IMG/VR virus record: IMGVR_UViG_3300017909_004502
Location: 1-62,154 of that record
Origin: a virus
Lineage: Duplodnaviria; Caudoviricetes
Length of the DNA stretch: 62,154 nucleotides
Strand: one strand, 5' to 3'
Below are positions 55,562-61,835 of this stretch, one piece after another. The first letter of the stretch is position 1. Every line of letters starts with the position of its first letter. Under the pieces are notes generated by a model. That model was not told the DNA's origin. It did no database searches and saw only the letters and a list, made by a program, of their open reading frames with translations. The translations under genes and the position numbers were made by a program.

Positions 55562-56581
55562 ATGTTTTTTAAAAAAGTCGCTTGTTTCACGGACATACAC
55601 TTTGGCTTGAAGGGCAACAGTCGTGTTCACAACGACGACTGCGAGGCATTCGTGTACTGGTTCATAGAGCAGGCCAAGGCACACGGTTGCGAGACCTGTA
55701 TATTCCTGGGCGACTGGCACCATCACAGATCCGCTGTAAATGTCAGCACAATGAACTACACAGTTTCAAACATGGAGAGGTTGGGCAAGGCATTTGAGAA
55801 AGTTTACGTGATAATGGGCAATCATGATCTTTTCTACAGAGAAAAACGTGAGATCAATTCCATGGAGTTCATAAGGAACATTCCCAACGTACACATTGTT
55901 AATGAGTGGATTGTTGAAGACGATGTTGCCATAATACCATGGATCGTCGAAGACGAATGGAAGATAATTGAAAAAATGAAACAGCAGTATGTTTTTGGAC
56001 ATTTCGAACTACCGTACTTCAAGATGAACGCAATGGTGGAAATGCCAGATGTTGGAGGTATCAAGACAGAACATTTTGCCGGATGCGGTCAGGTGTTCTC
56101 AGGACACTTCCACAAAAGACAACAGATGAAAAATGTCACATACATGGGAAACGCTTTTCCACACAACTACGCAGATGCATGGGATGACGAACGTGGCATG
56201 ATGATACTGGAACATGGTGGCAAACCAAAATACATAAATTGGCCGGATATGCCGAGATACAGAACAATCAAGATAAGCGAATTGCTGGCGGATCCGGAGA
56301 AGCATCTCAAACCAAAGATGTATGTGAGAGTAACTTTGGATATAAAAATCAGTTACGAGGAAGCAAACTTCATACGAGAAACATTTATAGAAAAATACGA
56401 ATTGAGAGAATTACAGTTGATACCGGAACAGGTGGATCAAGCACAACAACCCACTGTCGAAGTACAGAAGTTCGACAGCGTGGATCAAATAGTAATAAAG
56501 CAACTACAAGGGGTAGATTCCGAGACATATGACAAAAACATATTGACAGCAATCTACAATGATTTAGATGTTAACCATTAA
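55562..56581 (+). CDS. gp47: Recombination endonuclease, Mre11/SbcD-like
   Basis: Motifs DIHFG, GDWHH, GNHD, GHFE and SGHFH. Confidence 0.95.
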   Translation: MFFKKVACFTDIHFGLKGNSRVHNDDCEAFVYWFIEQAKAHGCETCIFLGDWHHHRSAVNVSTMNYTVSNMERLGKAFEKVYVIMGNHDLFYREKREINSMEFIRNIPNVHIVNEWIVEDDVAIIPWIVEDEWKIIEKMKQQYVFGHFELPYFKMNAMVEMPDVGGIKTEHFAGCGQVFSGHFHKRQQMKNVTYMGNAFPHNYADAWDDERGMMILEHGGKPKYINWPDMPRYRTIKISELLADPEKHLKPKMYVRVTLDIKISYEEANFIRETFIEKYELRELQLIPEQVDQAQQPTVEVQKFDSVDQIVIKQLQGVDSETYDKNILTAIYNDLDVNH

Positions 56582-58343
56582 AGAACTCACAGTAAAAAAC
56601 TTCATGAGCGTGGGCAATGCCGCACAAAGCATTAACTTTGCCAACAAAAATTTAGTATTGGTTATAGGTGAGAACATGGACCTCGGCGGCGATGATGCGG
56701 GTGCTAGGAATGGTACCGGTAAGACCACAATCATTAATGCATTGAGTTATGTATTCTTTGGTGAGGCGCTCACAAGCATCAGGAGAGACAACCTTGTAAA
56801 CAAAACAAACGAAAAAGGCATGATGGTCAGTGTGAAGTTTGTAAAGAACAATGTGGAATACACCATAGAACGTGGACGTAAACCACAAATATTCAAATTC
56901 TATGCCAATGACATCGAACAGAATGTCGAAAGCAACGAAGCACAGGGCGAAAACAAGGAAACACAACAAGAGATAAATCGCTTGATCGGAATGACACATT
57001 CCATGTTCAAAAACATAATTGCGTTGAACACGTACACACAACCGTTCCTGTCAACAAAAGCAAACGAGCAAAGAGAGATTATTGAACAACTATTGGGGAT
57101 CACTTTGCTTTCTGCAAAAGCCGATATGCTCAAAGACAAAATGAAATCCACCAAGCAGGAACTGACCGAGGAAAAATACAAGATAGATTCAACATTGGCC
57201 GCAAATGAAAAAATACAAGAATCGGTTGAAAGCCTCAAAATACGTTCAAGTGCATGGCAGACACAGAGAGATGAGGACATCGAGAAGTTCAACGATGCCA
57301 TAACCGAACTGGAAAAAGTCGACATCAAGAAAGAACTTGAAGCACACAAACGTTTACAGGCACACAAGGAAAACAGCACAGCGTTGCGAAGCCTGGAAAA
57401 AGAAAAAGCGTATCATGAAGACAGCCTTACACGTGCTGAAAACAATGTCAACAAAGCAGAAACCGATCTTGAATACGCCAATGATGCGAAATGTCCAACA
57501 TGTGAACAACCATTGCACGATGACAAACATAAAAAACTAACCGAGAAATTGACAGTGACACTAACAGAAAACAGAGACGATGTTTCTAGACTGCAAAGTG
57601 ATCTTGCAAAAATACAACAGGGCATAGACGAGATTGGCGATCTTGGGCAAGTCCCGGACACGTATTACGACAATATGGACGAAGCATACAATCACAAAGG
57701 TTCGTTAAAGGATTTAAAACGCCAATTGGAACAGACAGAGGACAAAGAGGATCCGTACGCGGAACAGATAGAAGAACTTACAAAGACTGCAATACAAAAA
57801 GTCGACTACACCAAGATCAACGAACTGGAAGATCTATATAGACACCAGGAGTTCTTATACAAACTACTGACAGCCAAAGATTCATTTATACGAACAAGGA
57901 TCATAGAACAAAACTTGACTTACTTGAACCAAAGATTGGCCTACTTCCTGGGCAAAGTGAAGTTGCCACACACCGTGACTTTTCAACCGGACCTATCTGT
58001 AACGATAGAAGAACTGGGCAGAGAGTTAGACTTTGACAACTTGTCAAGGGGTGAACGTAACAGGTTGATCTTAAGTTTAAGTTGGGCATTCAGAGATGTG
58101 TGGGAAAGTCTTTATCAACAGATTAACTTGTTGTTCATAGACGAATTAGTTGATGCGGGTATGGACATTTCAGGTGTGGAAAGTTCAATGGCCGTGCTCA
58201 AGGAAATGAGTCGTACACAACAAAAAAATATTTTCCTAATATCACACAAAGACGAGTTGGTGGGAAGAGTAAATTCTGTATTGAAAGTGGTAAAAGAAAA
58301 TGGTTTTACCAATTATGCCAACGATGTTGAAATAATTGTTTAA
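56568..58343 (+). CDS. gp46: Recombination ATPase, Rad50/SbcC-like
   Basis: Walker A NGTGKTT, zinc hook CPTC, signature LSRGE, Walker B FIDE and ISH. Confidence 0.95.
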   Translation: MLTIKELTVKNFMSVGNAAQSINFANKNLVLVIGENMDLGGDDAGARNGTGKTTIINALSYVFFGEALTSIRRDNLVNKTNEKGMMVSVKFVKNNVEYTIERGRKPQIFKFYANDIEQNVESNEAQGENKETQQEINRLIGMTHSMFKNIIALNTYTQPFLSTKANEQREIIEQLLGITLLSAKADMLKDKMKSTKQELTEEKYKIDSTLAANEKIQESVESLKIRSSAWQTQRDEDIEKFNDAITELEKVDIKKELEAHKRLQAHKENSTALRSLEKEKAYHEDSLTRAENNVNKAETDLEYANDAKCPTCEQPLHDDKHKKLTEKLTVTLTENRDDVSRLQSDLAKIQQGIDEIGDLGQVPDTYYDNMDEAYNHKGSLKDLKRQLEQTEDKEDPYAEQIEELTKTAIQKVDYTKINELEDLYRHQEFLYKLLTAKDSFIRTRIIEQNLTYLNQRLAYFLGKVKLPHTVTFQPDLSVTIEELGRELDFDNLSRGERNRLILSLSWAFRDVWESLYQQINLLFIDELVDAGMDISGVESSMAVLKEMSRTQQKNIFLISHKDELVGRVNSVLKVVKENGFTNYANDVEIIV

Positions 58344-58649: not shown

Positions 58650-58679
58650 AAAGCCTGTGTAGAAATATGCAGGCTTTTT
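58650..58679 (+). terminator. Intrinsic terminator
   Basis: AAAGCCTGTGTA-GAAA-TATGCAGGCTTT followed by a short T run. Confidence 0.8.
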
Positions 58680-58684
58680 CAGTT

Positions 58685-59722
58685 ATGCAATATAAAATTG
58701 AAATACTGTTGTCTACCGAGAATCAAAAGTCTGCACCTATAATATTCTTTAATAGTGAAAAAATAATTCTAAAAGGTGAGCACACTATAAAAACAGACGT
58801 AGCGACAGATAAAGAGATAAGTTTTGATGTTGAGAGCATTGAGGACAATGCAATAAATGTTGAACAGATTCTTATCAATGATTGCGTCATGGATAAGTTT
58901 GCACACTCAAAATTCCAATTCAACAGCATAGATGTCACAGCAGAGTCGATAGACAGAATTGACAACACAGGCACCTATACCCTCAAAGTGGACAAAACAC
59001 TTGTTGAATGCACACGATCAGATTATTGGAAAATATCAAATCACAATAAAGATTACATCTACAACATAATTTTTCATGACGACAAACAAGACACAGGATA
59101 TAAGCCAAGAAACCATGCTGTTATAAAAAACGACTCCATCTGTGTACTTGGTGACTCGTTCACGTTCGGATGGGGCATTGCTGTCGCGGACACATGGCCA
59201 ACATTGCTTGAACAAAAAATAAAGCAACCTGTTATGAATTTGGCTGTTACAGGTGCTGGTATAGATATCGTGTACAATAACTTTAAGAAACTGCTTACAG
59301 AATATGAATTCTCAAAAATTATAATAAATCTACCAGTGTTCACAAGACGTGTAGTGAAATGTAAATTACCTAACGGATACTACAAAATACCAAACACTTA
59401 CTTGCCGGATATCGATCACGATAACAGTTTTCTATACTTCAATCACGCCGAAGTTTCTAAAGCAAGGAAGTTAACCGAACAAAAAATGGTCAAGGACGTT
59501 GACTGTTTGTATCAAAAAAAAATATTACAAAGACTGTTTAAACTCGGTAAGCAACACGGTTGCACTTTTATAACAAGTAGATTTGACGATGTTTACAAAT
59601 ATGTGCAGGATCATTATGATAATAAATTTGTTTTACCAAAATGGCAACTGGAAAACTACGATCGCCATCCCACTATAAAAGACAACGAAAAATTTGTAGA
59701 TTCTATCACTTCTTTTTTATAA
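58685..59722 (+). CDS. SGNH/GDSL-like protein, AT-rich
   Basis: LGDSFTFGWG, NLAVTGAG and RHP. ATG 58667 lies inside the terminator, so 58685 is preferred. Confidence 0.7.
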   Translation: MQYKIEILLSTENQKSAPIIFFNSEKIILKGEHTIKTDVATDKEISFDVESIEDNAINVEQILINDCVMDKFAHSKFQFNSIDVTAESIDRIDNTGTYTLKVDKTLVECTRSDYWKISNHNKDYIYNIIFHDDKQDTGYKPRNHAVIKNDSICVLGDSFTFGWGIAVADTWPTLLEQKIKQPVMNLAVTGAGIDIVYNNFKKLLTEYEFSKIIINLPVFTRRVVKCKLPNGYYKIPNTYLPDIDHDNSFLYFNHAEVSKARKLTEQKMVKDVDCLYQKKILQRLFKLGKQHGCTFITSRFDDVYKYVQDHYDNKFVLPKWQLENYDRHPTIKDNEKFVDSITSFL

Positions 59723-60113
59723 TACCCTTGCCATGTACCCGGACTCTAATGTGTCCGTTGTAGTAGTCGTTTGATTCAAGCACCTTGCGTGCGAACTGTT
59801 CACGTGCCTCGATGTAGGAGAGTTCCGCTTTCGAATAGCAATAGAATAATATTTCACGTGTGAAATTTTCCTTGCCCAGTTTAAGCACATCGGCTGTGAG
59901 TTCGTCACTGCTACCATAATACTCTCTCCAGTCGGAATCCACTTTGTACCTTCTTTTGTTTTTCCTGCCTTTGAGTGGTGGTCGTGATCTCTTGAACCTG
60001 GCCAATTTCTTGCCGATGTACATCCTGCCGTTGGTTGTGTTGGTAATTTGGTACACGAATCCCACCACGTCCTCTGGTAATTCGTTAACTGTTTTTTGTT
60101 GGAAAGTCCACAT
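59706..60113 (-). CDS. Stand-alone GIY-YIG endonuclease (T4 EndoII/DenA-like)
   Basis: GFVY.ITN..NGRMYIGKK, W..YYGSS, F.REIL, E and YYN. Confidence 0.88.
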   Translation of the reverse strand: MWTFQQKTVNELPEDVVGFVYQITNTTNGRMYIGKKLARFKRSRPPLKGRKNKRRYKVDSDWREYYGSSDELTADVLKLGKENFTREILFYCYSKAELSYIEAREQFARKVLESNDYYNGHIRVRVHGKGIIKKK

Positions 60114-60137
60114 CACCAATATTTAAATTCAAAAAGA

Positions 60138-60167
60138 TTGACCTTAAAATAAAAATAGTATAAACAT
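60138..60167 (+). promoter_or_regulatory. Possible sigma70-type promoter for the structured element
   Basis: TTGACC followed by an AT-rich spacer and TAGTATAAACAT; the -10 spacing is imperfect. Confidence 0.45.
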
Positions 60168-60169
60168 AT

Positions 60170-60580
60170 GCGATAGGCACAAACACAACTCTTTAGAATT
60201 TCACAAAGGCAAACATAGCATCGCAACCAGTGAGCAGGGAAATGCGGCTAACAAGCGACAGGTGAATCCCTTGATGCAAACAGCAAAAATGATGAGGCTC
60301 TGAGAAACAGCAACCTCAGGTCTGCCATGGATTATCATGCAAAGGCATGGCGGGCTCGCGTTGGATGAATAAGCGAATGGGTACAGCACAACCGCCCAGT
60401 TACGACAGCGTTGCATGGTGACTGTGAACTCGCCACACGGGTAAAGTCAGTTCGGCTAGAAATAGCCGAATTATGACTGCTCATCTGCCACAGCAGGCGC
60501 AAACGTTAAATTTGCGTTCGCGTATGTTAAAAAAAGAAACGAGCGTAAGCGAAGTTTCAGATGGTTGCAAACCATCTTTA
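60170..60580 (+). ncRNA. Putative large structured ncRNA of unknown class
   Basis: The longest gap without a credible ORF. It holds about 9 stems, GAAA and GTAA tetraloops, and G-U pairs that work on the + strand. Confidence 0.6.
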
Positions 60581-60601
60581 CAGCATGAGTAAGTACAGTG
60601 T

Positions 60602-61369
60602 ATGCAGTTGATGTTTGATCACACATTTGGCAAGCAGGAAAATCAAGATTTGGTGGTGTCACGACCGCTGTGCATATTCGAACCGGACGAGGAACAGGGC
60701 GCCATAGAACACGGTTGGCTGGCACTGGACGAACCGGTGCACGGACATGAAGTGTTCTACCAATCCCGCAGTACACGGATAAACCTACGCAACTTCCGAC
60801 CCAGATTCCGAGAACACACCCTGGATGGCGAGCCCGTACGGCACAAGACCGTGGAGGCGTCGGAAATGGTGAAACTGTTGGGTCTGCCCTCGATCTACCA
60901 ACGCTACATGAAGCGGAAAAAATTTGGCGCGGACTACACGCCGTTCCGTCACTATCACAAGCGTGATCGATTCATGGTATTCTACACCGGAAGTGCGGAT
61001 CACATAGTGGGATTCACCAAGCAGAAGTTCTACCGCGAGGAGGACAACCAATACGCCACCATAGACGATTACATGATACATCATCCCGGAGTCGAGAGTT
61101 GCATACACGCCAACATCGCACCCATAGGCGCACTCACGCTGGATCTTGAACTGAAGTGGGCCAAGGAACAGGGCATACCGTTCTACTACCTGGGCAGTGG
61201 CTACGAACAGAGCTCGGAGTACAAGTCGTCATGGCAGGGATTTGAATGGTGGACCGGCATCGAGTGGAGCACCAACAAGAAACTGTATCGTAGATTGTGT
61301 AAGCGAGACAGTCGCCTTACTGCTTTTTCCCAGCTCGGAAACCTTTCACTGATTCCAGATAAGAGCTAG
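60602..61369 (+). CDS. Arginyl/leucyl-tRNA-protein transferase-like (ATE/Bpt-like) protein
   Basis: N-terminal GW..RSTRI; C-terminal G.L....E..WAK..G..FYYLG.GY....YK.....E. Confidence 0.6.
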   Translation: MQLMFDHTFGKQENQDLVVSRPLCIFEPDEEQGAIEHGWLALDEPVHGHEVFYQSRSTRINLRNFRPRFREHTLDGEPVRHKTVEASEMVKLLGLPSIYQRYMKRKKFGADYTPFRHYHKRDRFMVFYTGSADHIVGFTKQKFYREEDNQYATIDDYMIHHPGVESCIHANIAPIGALTLDLELKWAKEQGIPFYYLGSGYEQSSEYKSSWQGFEWWTGIEWSTNKKLYRRLCKRDSRLTAFSQLGNLSLIPDKS

Positions 61370-61835
61370 ACCAATTGCGGTAGTAAGGACCGGCCTCTAA
61401 TATTTTCGAGAATTTATTAAGTTTGCTGAGCCGCTGTGCCAGGAACAGCGTGTATTCACCGTTGTTGAGTTTGACCTGTTGCACGTGTTCTGCTATCTCG
61501 GGATGGTCCTCCAGCACCACGATGTCCCTCTGCATGAAATAACCGTTGAGATCCTCCGCCAGTCGCTCGGTCTCTGTGGCCGTGAACTGATCGGGTTCCG
61601 CTATCATGCACAACACATCCACCTCATCAAAGTCGGTGTCCAGTATGTGTTGATAGAGTGTGGGATATCCGGCCACGCCGTCCAGTTCCAGGAACCGAAC
61701 CTTGTCGTCGATCATGGCCTTCTGTGCGAACGGGCACGGAGGCAGGTTACCAAAAACCGGGTTGGGTCGAGTAACAAACTCGCTAATCCAGGTCTTGATC
61801 TTTTCCGTCGGTGTCTGTTTCTGTTGTTGAGTCAT
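61317..61835 (-). CDS. Hypothetical protein, DUF1415-like
   Basis: W...FV...N.PPCPFA, DHP and L.QR motifs. Confidence 0.55.
   Translation of the reverse strand: MTQQQKQTPTEKIKTWISEFVTRPNPVFGNLPPCPFAQKAMIDDKVRFLELDGVAGYPTLYQHILDTDFDEVDVLCMIAEPDQFTATETERLAEDLNGYFMQRDIVVLEDHPEIAEHVQQVKLNNGEYTLFLAQRLSKLNKFSKILEAGPYYRNWSSSYLESVKGFRAGKKQ

Follow-up and report, generated by a model that had tools for sequence, protein, structure and literature searches.

The window analyzed here, a 62,154-base viral fragment of 14% estimated completeness (IMG/VR record IMGVR_UViG_3300017909_004502), contains an intergenic element bounded on one side by a minus-strand gene for a GIY-YIG nuclease and on the other by a plus-strand open reading frame (ORF) for a 255-amino-acid protein; a gene for the Rad50-like protein gp46 lies upstream (Table 1). 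A preliminary description, made from the letters of the window, had placed a structured RNA-like element at 60126-60601, between the nuclease gene and the gene that follows. The element proved to be real, and the RNA proper was narrowed to about 60172-60579, preceded by promoter sequence (60126-60171) and followed by a spacer to the next ORF (60580-60601). We consider it probable that 60172-60579 on the plus strand is an independent gene, and that its product, a structured noncoding RNA (ncRNA) of about 410 nt, belongs to a clade of uncultured marine jumbo phages and acts in trans as a scaffold.

Relatives of the element are numerous in environmental sequence. Ten viral contigs found through the 255-amino-acid protein yielded nine loci with the element; at eight of them it extended over most of its length with 75-86% nucleotide identity, and the ninth locus begins inside it. 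The adjacent protein is 52-76% identical at the amino acid level in the same relatives, below the nucleotide identity of the RNA. An invariant 17-mer from the alignment was then used to scan the viral_contigs and metagenome_contigs sets and prokaryote genomes; here and throughout, counts of homologues are counts among the matches listed, and database totals are lower bounds. The 17-mer matched at least 118 stretches in viral_contigs and at least 118 in metagenome_contigs, and 122 of 129 loci, the window's own included, matched a hidden Markov model (HMM) of the element. Prokaryote genomes gave 87 stretches versus approximately 69 estimated by chance, and the HMM match was true at 4 of the 80 loci examined; all four are on short contigs of marine metagenome-assembled genomes and thus provide no clue to the host. 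Carrier phages come from marine metagenomes and have estimated genomes of ~350-440 kb. Besides the main clade there are deep clades, found in phages with gp46 proteins only ~50% identical, in which the core, the motif order and the terminal hairpin persist.

Secondary structure was modeled on an alignment of 60 distinct full-length sequences. The minimum free energy z-score against shuffles was -2.97 for the plus strand and -1.58 for the minus strand. Of the 64 pairs predicted by RNAalifold, 35 showed compensatory changes. A pseudoknot, in which the loop of a long hairpin pairs with a stretch ~75 nt downstream, emerged from an all-against-all helix scan. In the model of 76 pairs and 13 helices, pseudoknot included, 96.8% of 4542 cells were paired and 41 of the 76 pairs changed on both sides; no shuffle among 500 reached any of five measures, and sliding the partners by 1-3 columns left only 32-40% of cells paired. 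G-U cells far outnumbered A-C cells (477 versus 44), and pairing was less canonical when read from the minus strand (87.3%) than from the plus strand (96.8%); thus the RNA is read from the plus strand. A conserved ORF was not found inside the RNA, the longest complete ORF varying from 35 to 101 amino acids among homologues. Covariation is strong: as read from the alignment, the element specifies a conserved, pseudoknotted, plus-strand RNA with at least 13 helices.

Nine stems had been drawn by eye in the window, of which seven recur in the 60 homologues, an eighth in part. GCATC/GATGC enclosing AGGGA/TCCCT corresponds to helices 1 and 2, TGAGG/CCTCA with its inner CTG-AGAAA-CAG to helices 3 and 4, GTCTGCCATG/CATGGCGGGC to helix 5, TGGGT/GCCCA to helix 7, AGTCA-GTTCGGCTA-GAAA-TAGCCGAAT-TGACT to helix 10, GAAAC..GC-GTAA-GC..GTTTC to helices 11 and 12, and AGATGGT/ACCATCT to helix 13. 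GCGCAAA/TTTGCGT falls in a region of variable length that folds in most homologues but is not conserved in sequence. CTGC-CACA-GCAG occurs in this window only, and its CACA is part of one of the co-varying segments described below.

Table 1. Features of the ncRNA gene and its surroundings, in window coordinates
Feature	Position	Strand	Sequence, pairing or evidence
gp46 (Rad50-like) gene	56568-58343		upstream of element; profile match
GIY-YIG (SegE-type) protein, 137 amino acids	59706-60119	-	Pfam PF19835, E 1e-36; phrog_447; divergent from RNA
Sigma-70-type promoter	60138-60166	+	-35 TTGACC 60138-60143, 17-nt spacer, -10 TAAACA 60161-60166; sequence, conservation
ncRNA gene	60172-60579	+	~408 nt; homologue identity, 76-pair structure, no conserved ORF
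5' single-stranded A/C-rich region	60175-60211	+	AGGCA at 60175-60179 and 60207-60211
Domain 1	60218-60277	+	helix 1 (60218-60222/60273-60277) around helix 2 (60236-60240/60267-60271); 97.0% and 92.9% paired
Helices 3 and 4	60294-60317	+	GAGG/CCTC and TG/CA, AGAAA loop; 100% paired, 5 of 6 pairs compensatory
Helix 5, long hairpin	60319-60356	+	60319-60333/60342-60356; 13 pairs, 11 changed on both sides, 97.7% paired
Pseudoknot	60335-60418	+	helix 5 loop 60335-60340 (UCAUGC) with 60413-60418 (GCAUGG); helix scan
Helix 7, then short helix 8	60378-60406	+	60378-60382/60394-60398; 11-nt loop ACAGCACAACC (60383-60393)
Hairpin HL1	60426-60443	+	segment 1, CUC-GCC-ACA; variable triplet 60432-60434
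Helix 10, GNRA-capped hairpin	60445-60478	+	GAAA at 60459-60462; 14 pairs, 96.8% paired, 5 compensatory
Segment 2	60480-60492	+	CUCAUCU-GCC-ACA; triplet 60487-60489, same as segment 1 triplet
Variable-length region, usually a hairpin	60496-60532	+	GCGUAA-like repeats; free energy <= -5 kcal/mol in 55/60; 15-59 nt
Helices 11 and 12	60536-60558	+	GAAAC-GA-GC-GUAA-GC-GAA-GUUUC, G/A-rich internal loop; 97.3% paired, 3 compensatory
Terminal hairpin	60559-60579	+	60559-60565/60571-60577, then UUU; 98.8% paired, 2 compensatory pairs
255-amino-acid protein	60602-61369	+	AlphaFold2/Foldseek likeness to aminoacyl-tRNA-dependent transferases

AGGCA or AGGCU occurs in two to four copies in the unstructured 5' part of all clades, deep ones included, and these repeats could form a platform for protein or RNA binding. 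Helices 1 and 2 each have three pairs with changes on both sides, and the GGCUCU of the helix 3-4 region is found across all clades, again including the deep ones. The pseudoknot is 99.2% paired with four of six pairs compensatory, one of them being C-G in 30 sequences and U-A in 28. The helix 7 loop and most of its stem are invariant in 60/60; its closing pair, the one covarying pair in the main clade, is C-G in 39 sequences and U-A in 20, and the stem is lengthened by compensatory changes in the deep clades. The HL1 stem was only 85.8% paired in fixed columns because its register shifts between sequences. The helix 10 loop reads GAAA, GUAA, GCAA, GAGA or GCGA, every one of them GNRA, and the GAGCG.AAGCGAA of helices 11 and 12 persists in deep clades. 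The motif GCGUAA(R) was present in one to three copies in the variable-length region and once more in helix 12 (GAGCGUAAGCG).

Signals for independent transcription are also conserved. The preliminary description had remarked on a promoter-like TTGACC ahead of the element; TTGAC is present in 49 of the 60 homologues, and 17-18 nt after it (17 nt in the window) comes TAAACA, TATATA or TATAAT. By its spacing from these boxes, transcription would start near 60172-60173. At the other end, the terminal hairpin likely forms a weak terminator and the 3' end; a U-tract follows it in some relatives.

The RNA belongs to no Rfam family, and we rate it a new class. Rfam 15, with 4227 covariance models that include those for transfer RNA (tRNA), transfer-messenger RNA (tmRNA), RNase P, group I and group II introns, 6S, T-box, GOLLD, ROOL, HEARO, OLE, raiA and IMES, had no match at gathering score in the whole window. 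At E <= 10 over 59900-60800 there were two chance-level matches, both outside the element; 17 divergent loci had none, nor did the deep-clade locus L040 at E <= 5. ARAGORN detected neither tRNA nor tmRNA in the window. The Infernal search of Rfam that had been suggested at the outset thus agrees, together with ARAGORN, with the initial impression that hallmarks of tRNA, tmRNA, RNase P and group II introns are missing, and the proposal of a new large structured phage ncRNA is borne out by the empty Rfam search and the strong covariation. A group I or group II intron was rejected on the grounds of the RNA's own promoter, its position between complete ORFs and the lack of an Rfam intron match. 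A literature search by terms found no description of this RNA (supplementary tables, outside the scope of that search, could hold relevant data).

Cultured phages gave no homologue. Among 50,697 phage records, blastn found no true match for the element or, at E <= 10, for its invariant core, and tblastn found none for the 255-amino-acid protein. The closest cultured relatives of the window's gp46 are those of the jumbo phages PA5oct, Phosso and Atu_ph07 (42-47% identity); nhmmer returned nothing in the PA5oct, Phosso and Melnitz loci. PA5oct (NC_071039) has, past gp46 and a RusA-like gene, a ~1.5-kb stretch with only four tiny annotated ORFs (L130 8017-9531; record ~75.7-77.2 kb), which opens with TTGACA-17-TATAAT (L130 8151-8179) and closes with a GC hairpin and U-tract. 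By eye it has motifs that resemble the helix 3 region, the invariant loop and the pseudoknot; the covariance model reached only E 0.11. That best match of model R1 (L130 8667-8811, 12.1 bits) was no better than matches to coding DNA and was not counted. The PA5oct paper lists four ncRNAs, all at other coordinates (PMC7318152). Sinorhizobium phage Phosso has a ~1-kb unannotated gap at the equivalent place (L131 8410-9425), after gp46 and a Holliday-junction resolvase and before RNase HI.

An unusual property of the RNA is a pair of segments that vary together. In the main clade these read (A)CUC-NNN-ACA and (A)UCU-NNN-ACA and are 47-60 nt apart; segment 1 forms a small hairpin's loop, and segment 2 comes after the GNRA-capped hairpin and can itself close into a short hairpin. 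The preliminary description had recommended a search for a variable guide-like segment, and two are present. Their triplets are identical to each other in 60/60 aligned sequences and in 118/118 unique main-type sequences, where they read ACC (76), GCC (21), AGC (13), AGU (7) or ACU (1), the third position being C in 110 and U in the other 8. Mutual information of each triplet column was highest with its twin (second highest for the third position), and the 60-sequence alignment has no columns inside the RNA complementary to the variable triplets. A tree built without the triplet columns needs at least six triplet switches, with ACC to GCC at least three times and AGC twice; thus both sites changed together repeatedly. 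Deep clades also have two matching segments, with triplets ACA, ACG, GGA, AGA, AGG and UGG, followed by a clade-specific constant part (for example UGAUGA, UGAUAA, UAGA or UAAUGA) in the place of the main-clade ACA. Sequence comparison hence shows two loops under selection to be identical.

Targets for these segments were sought at several levels. The flanking 5-14 kb hold no conserved complementary site. The window has no further similar hairpins, and GCCACA, with 14 and 22 copies versus ~9 expected per strand, was counted as not enriched. tRNA genes were absent from the three main-clade contigs searched. At deep-clade loci (for example L040 at ~2205-2270, L022 and L043), stop-codon-like and often tandem triplets were seen after the shared triplet (UGA-UGA, UGA-UAA, UAA-UGA, UAA-UAA and UAG). 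A kink-turn or C/D-box reading of the deep-clade UGAUGA motifs was rejected, such motifs being missing from the main clade; so was a translational-bypass reading of the matched triplets, since their main-clade spacing keeps no frame and all three codon positions are conserved.

The genes around the RNA are less constant than the RNA itself. We surveyed 83 unique main-clade loci and 21 deep-clade loci, with denominators of 74 and 51 for the main clade and 19 for the deep clades. The GIY-YIG gene is divergent and adjacent at 64 of 74 main-clade loci and displaced by 0.9-3.2 kb of inserted genes at another 8; in deep clades it is divergent and adjacent at 2 of 19, elsewhere upstream at 10 (on the RNA's strand in 7) and not found nearby at 7. 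On the downstream side, the 255-amino-acid gene follows directly at 35 of 51 main-clade loci and beyond inserted genes at 3; at 10 it is absent and a convergent gene lies 47-165 nt past the RNA, and 3 loci fit neither pattern. Three deep-clade loci have it as a divergent neighbor. From these counts, the RNA is the constant element of the locus, kept without either neighbor. Both of its borders are insertion hot spots (L008, L030, L114, L025, L081, L125, L129, L050), with 0.7-2.3 kb inserted before the 255-amino-acid gene and 0.9-3.2 kb before the GIY-YIG gene. Only a few relatives have, ahead of the GIY-YIG gene, the ORF of 351 amino acids that occupies 58667-59722 in the window and has weak DUF6473 and GDSL-lipase-like matches.

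The two neighboring proteins differ in how readily they are recognized. The GIY-YIG assignment of the preliminary description was confirmed by Pfam PF19835 (126.3 bits against a cut-off of 25, profile positions 1-123 of 123). The 255-amino-acid protein had no PHROG match and no Pfam match, ATE_N/ATE_C, DUF2156 and FemAB included (E <= 10 gave only a chance viral match), and a profile search of the PDB returned only E > 1. Its AlphaFold2 model (mean predicted local distance difference test score 61) had as top Foldseek matches L-PGS 4v36/MprF, human ATE1 8tzv and FemX (E ~1e-4, template modeling score only 0.33-0.46); this modest model suggests a GNAT-type fold whose nearest likeness may be to aminoacyl-tRNA-dependent transferases. 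The gene is probably reached by read-through from the RNA. It was lost or gained together with a gene for a convergent 172-amino-acid protein (61317-61835; weak DUF6875 match, motif PPCPFA).

We propose that host RNA polymerase transcribes the RNA from its own sigma-70-type promoter, and covariation shows that the product has a fold of no fewer than 13 helices, which includes a pseudoknot, hairpins capped by GNRA loops and a loop of 11 invariant nt. In trans, the RNA may serve as a rigid scaffold on which one short recognition loop, YYY-NNN-ACA, is presented twice. The same triplet in both loops and repeated switching among a few values point to a shared partner with few discrete versions, so that both loops would contact the same kind of molecule. 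Contact would most likely be by base pairing with RNA, with a tRNA anticodon as the leading candidate and a co-evolving phage protein as the alternative; free co-evolution with a protein would account less well for the convergent reuse of few triplets than a partner that exists in a small number of fixed forms. The anticodon, to which we give a low probability, is the most interesting candidate because of the Y-NNN-A form, the C or U at the third position in 118/118 sequences and the transferase-like neighbor. In its fullest form, the proposal has each of the twin loops pair with the anticodon of its own copy of the same selected tRNA, so that both copies are held or sensed, a speculative extension that we regard as improbable on present evidence. 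Candidate tRNAs would be Thr for ACN, Ala for GCC and Ser for AGY, with Gly, Arg or Trp in deep clades, and candidate roles include feeding the neighboring aminoacyl-tRNA-dependent transferase or protecting the tRNA against anticodon nucleases of the host. In most genomes the RNA would additionally be the 5' leader of the next gene, through transcription that continues beyond the weak terminal hairpin.

Several observations weigh against this reading. Contigs from four marine metatranscriptome runs (three studies) cover 60176-60559, which counts in favor of the gene, but contigs of RNA libraries show neither strand, ends nor abundance and may include DNA. In runs X2 and X4 the RNA region alone was covered, and in X5 and X6 summed depth over the RNA was above that of most flanks; as the runs had been selected by means of this stretch, and expression cannot be ranked from contigs, no conclusion was drawn. 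The U-tract after the terminal hairpin is absent in 19/60 sequences, which read CUGAC, and the next ORF lies within ~25 nt at 35/51 loci; the RNA may therefore have a cis role in those genomes. In the deep-clade sequence L047 the triplets of the two segments begin with different letters (GGG versus UGG). Identity between the segments also extends beyond the triplet, to more than three letters in deep clades and 1-4 nt past ACA in many main-clade sequences, and a pure triplet reading is therefore too simple. Finally, deep-clade contigs carry clustered tRNA genes, 33 in G004 (L043; 330 kb, 93% complete) and 27 in G003 (L013; 192 kb); those cognate to the triplets are among them, but the sets are nearly full and say nothing either way. 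ARAGORN calls in deep clades included one two-letter anticodon and one tRNA-Thr(AGU).

Among other explanations of the locus, the best placed concerns the neighborhood and not the function of the RNA, and is compatible with a scaffold: the GIY-YIG protein would be a free-standing homing endonuclease that settled beside a very conserved sequence, the RNA gene, and cleaves it in phages that lack the endonuclease. The protein belongs to the Pfam SegE family and has PHROG homing-endonuclease families as secondary matches, and there is a precedent in the T4 seg and mob endonuclease genes, which adjoin conserved genes. The RNA has 17-19 invariant bases, and the orientation of the GIY-YIG gene differs between clades. 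However, the gene lies within 3.2 kb at 72 of 74 main-clade loci, a nearly constant presence; its deep-clade identity of 57-77% versus 48-60% for gp46 is unlike that of a sporadic selfish gene; and in myoviruses of the cyanophage type the family resembles a core gene. We consider this explanation rather unlikely.

A cis-acting leader or riboswitch, in which a ligand such as a specific tRNA sets read-through into the transferase-like gene as in a T-box, is somewhat less likely still. This role had been raised in the preliminary description, and it agrees with the direct downstream position of the gene at most main-clade loci, where no promoter is evident between the two, with the likeness of the protein model to tRNA-dependent aminoacyl transferases and with the renewed adjacency of the ATE-like gene, there divergent, at three deep-clade loci. 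The Y-NNN-A loops resemble a codon followed by a purine, and the triplets end in C or, less often, U. Furthermore, UCAUCU, just ahead of segment 2, could pair with the 5' arm of the terminal hairpin (AGAUGG), the complementarity being 4-6 nt in 18 of the 26 representatives that have a terminal hairpin (28 tried). This alternative helix lacks consistent covariation, however, and falls to 3 nt in L117, L121 and L016; the sequences without a U-tract perhaps have no terminator to regulate; no T-box match was obtained even at E <= 10; and no residue of the downstream protein tracks the triplet, the best column having a purity of 0.60 and following lineage. At 10 of 51 loci the RNA is intact and conserved to the same degree although its only downstream neighbor is convergent, and at 3 of 51 other genes are inserted. 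The leader role would hold in part only.

The preliminary description had also offered the RNA as a partner of the GIY-YIG protein. In such a partnership the RNA might guide or target the nuclease, or be cut by it at the twin segments. Divergent adjacency is common in the main clade, and linkage survives rearrangement in deep clades, where the gene is often directly upstream on the same strand; the protein is a 137-amino-acid nuclease domain alone with no evident DNA-binding domain, and two identical sites would suit two cuts. Against this, the family is widespread among cultured T4-like phages, with 496 records (339 from Synechococcus phages) in a collection that gave no blastn match to the RNA. 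The closest copy, in phage Melnitz (61% identity), has no large intergenic region beside it. Inserted genes separate the pair at 8/74 loci, and 7/19 deep-clade loci have no GIY-YIG gene nearby. Its wide occurrence without the RNA weakens the proposal, and we judge such a partnership very unlikely. A DNA-level element without a functional RNA (a replication origin, a priming RNA or protein-binding iterons), the suggested origin-priming role included, is extremely improbable despite the position between divergent transcription units in a replication and recombination gene region and the two direct repeats 55 nt apart, given compensatory changes with G-U tolerated on one strand only, which is a signature of RNA, a sign change of GC/AT skew near 54 kb that coincides with a change of coding strand and not with the element, and a repeat motif that is not enriched elsewhere in the window.

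Among known systems, phi29 packaging RNA (pRNA) has loops that are complementary to each other and build a ring. Like pRNA, the present RNA is phage-encoded and structured and may act in trans through exposed loops; its loops are identical instead of complementary, and size, phage type and gene context differ. Lambdoid nut sites have two alike small boxB hairpins per phage, which differ between phages together with the cognate binding protein. Two like hairpins within one phage that differ between relatives are common to both systems, but here a single large RNA fold contains both, and no N-like protein was identified. The same few triplets recur independently, which a fixed set of partners would explain better than would free co-evolution.

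T-box leaders (RF00230) are likewise large structured RNAs upstream of a gene linked to aminoacyl-tRNA, with an exposed triplet that is followed by A and differs between members; the T-box specifier prefers C in the third position, as do the triplets here. A possible pairing that competes with the terminal hairpin (UCAUCU/AGAUGG) is a further likeness, although its covariation is inconsistent. The differences are substantial. There is no covariance-model match; two triplets are present, in hairpin loops, and not one in a Stem I internal loop, with U after the triplet in deep clades; no T-box sequence or UGGN bulge is recognizable, the UGGU at 60415-60418 being part of the pseudoknot; and this RNA, of phage origin, is kept without a co-oriented downstream gene at 10/51 main-clade loci. 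Were a tRNA to prove the partner, phage RNA biology would be linked to tRNA-dependent aminoacyl transfer or to the arms race over tRNA cleavage, and codon-like recognition of tRNA would have arisen a second time, independently, in a free-standing RNA, in addition to the T-box and the ribosome.

Few large RNAs with intricate folds have been found, and every one to date has led to new biochemistry. Even without a known function, the family is a good target for cryo-electron microscopy, and a new covariance model of it would serve the annotation of phage genomes. Two reports describe GOLLD and ROOL as large ornate RNAs, often encoded by phages or prophages and found by comparative genomics and metagenomes (PMC12286853, PMC5737381). 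Our RNA resembles them in its length of several hundred nt, its many helices, GNRA loops and pseudoknot, its presence in phages, its discovery through comparison of genomes and metagenomes and a function that is not known. It differs in having no sequence or structure match to either (at Rfam gathering score and at E <= 10), in a window without tRNA genes and in its two identically co-varying loops. To our knowledge, such twin loops have not been described for GOLLD or ROOL, and they give a handle on function, as a swap of the triplet should swap the partner.

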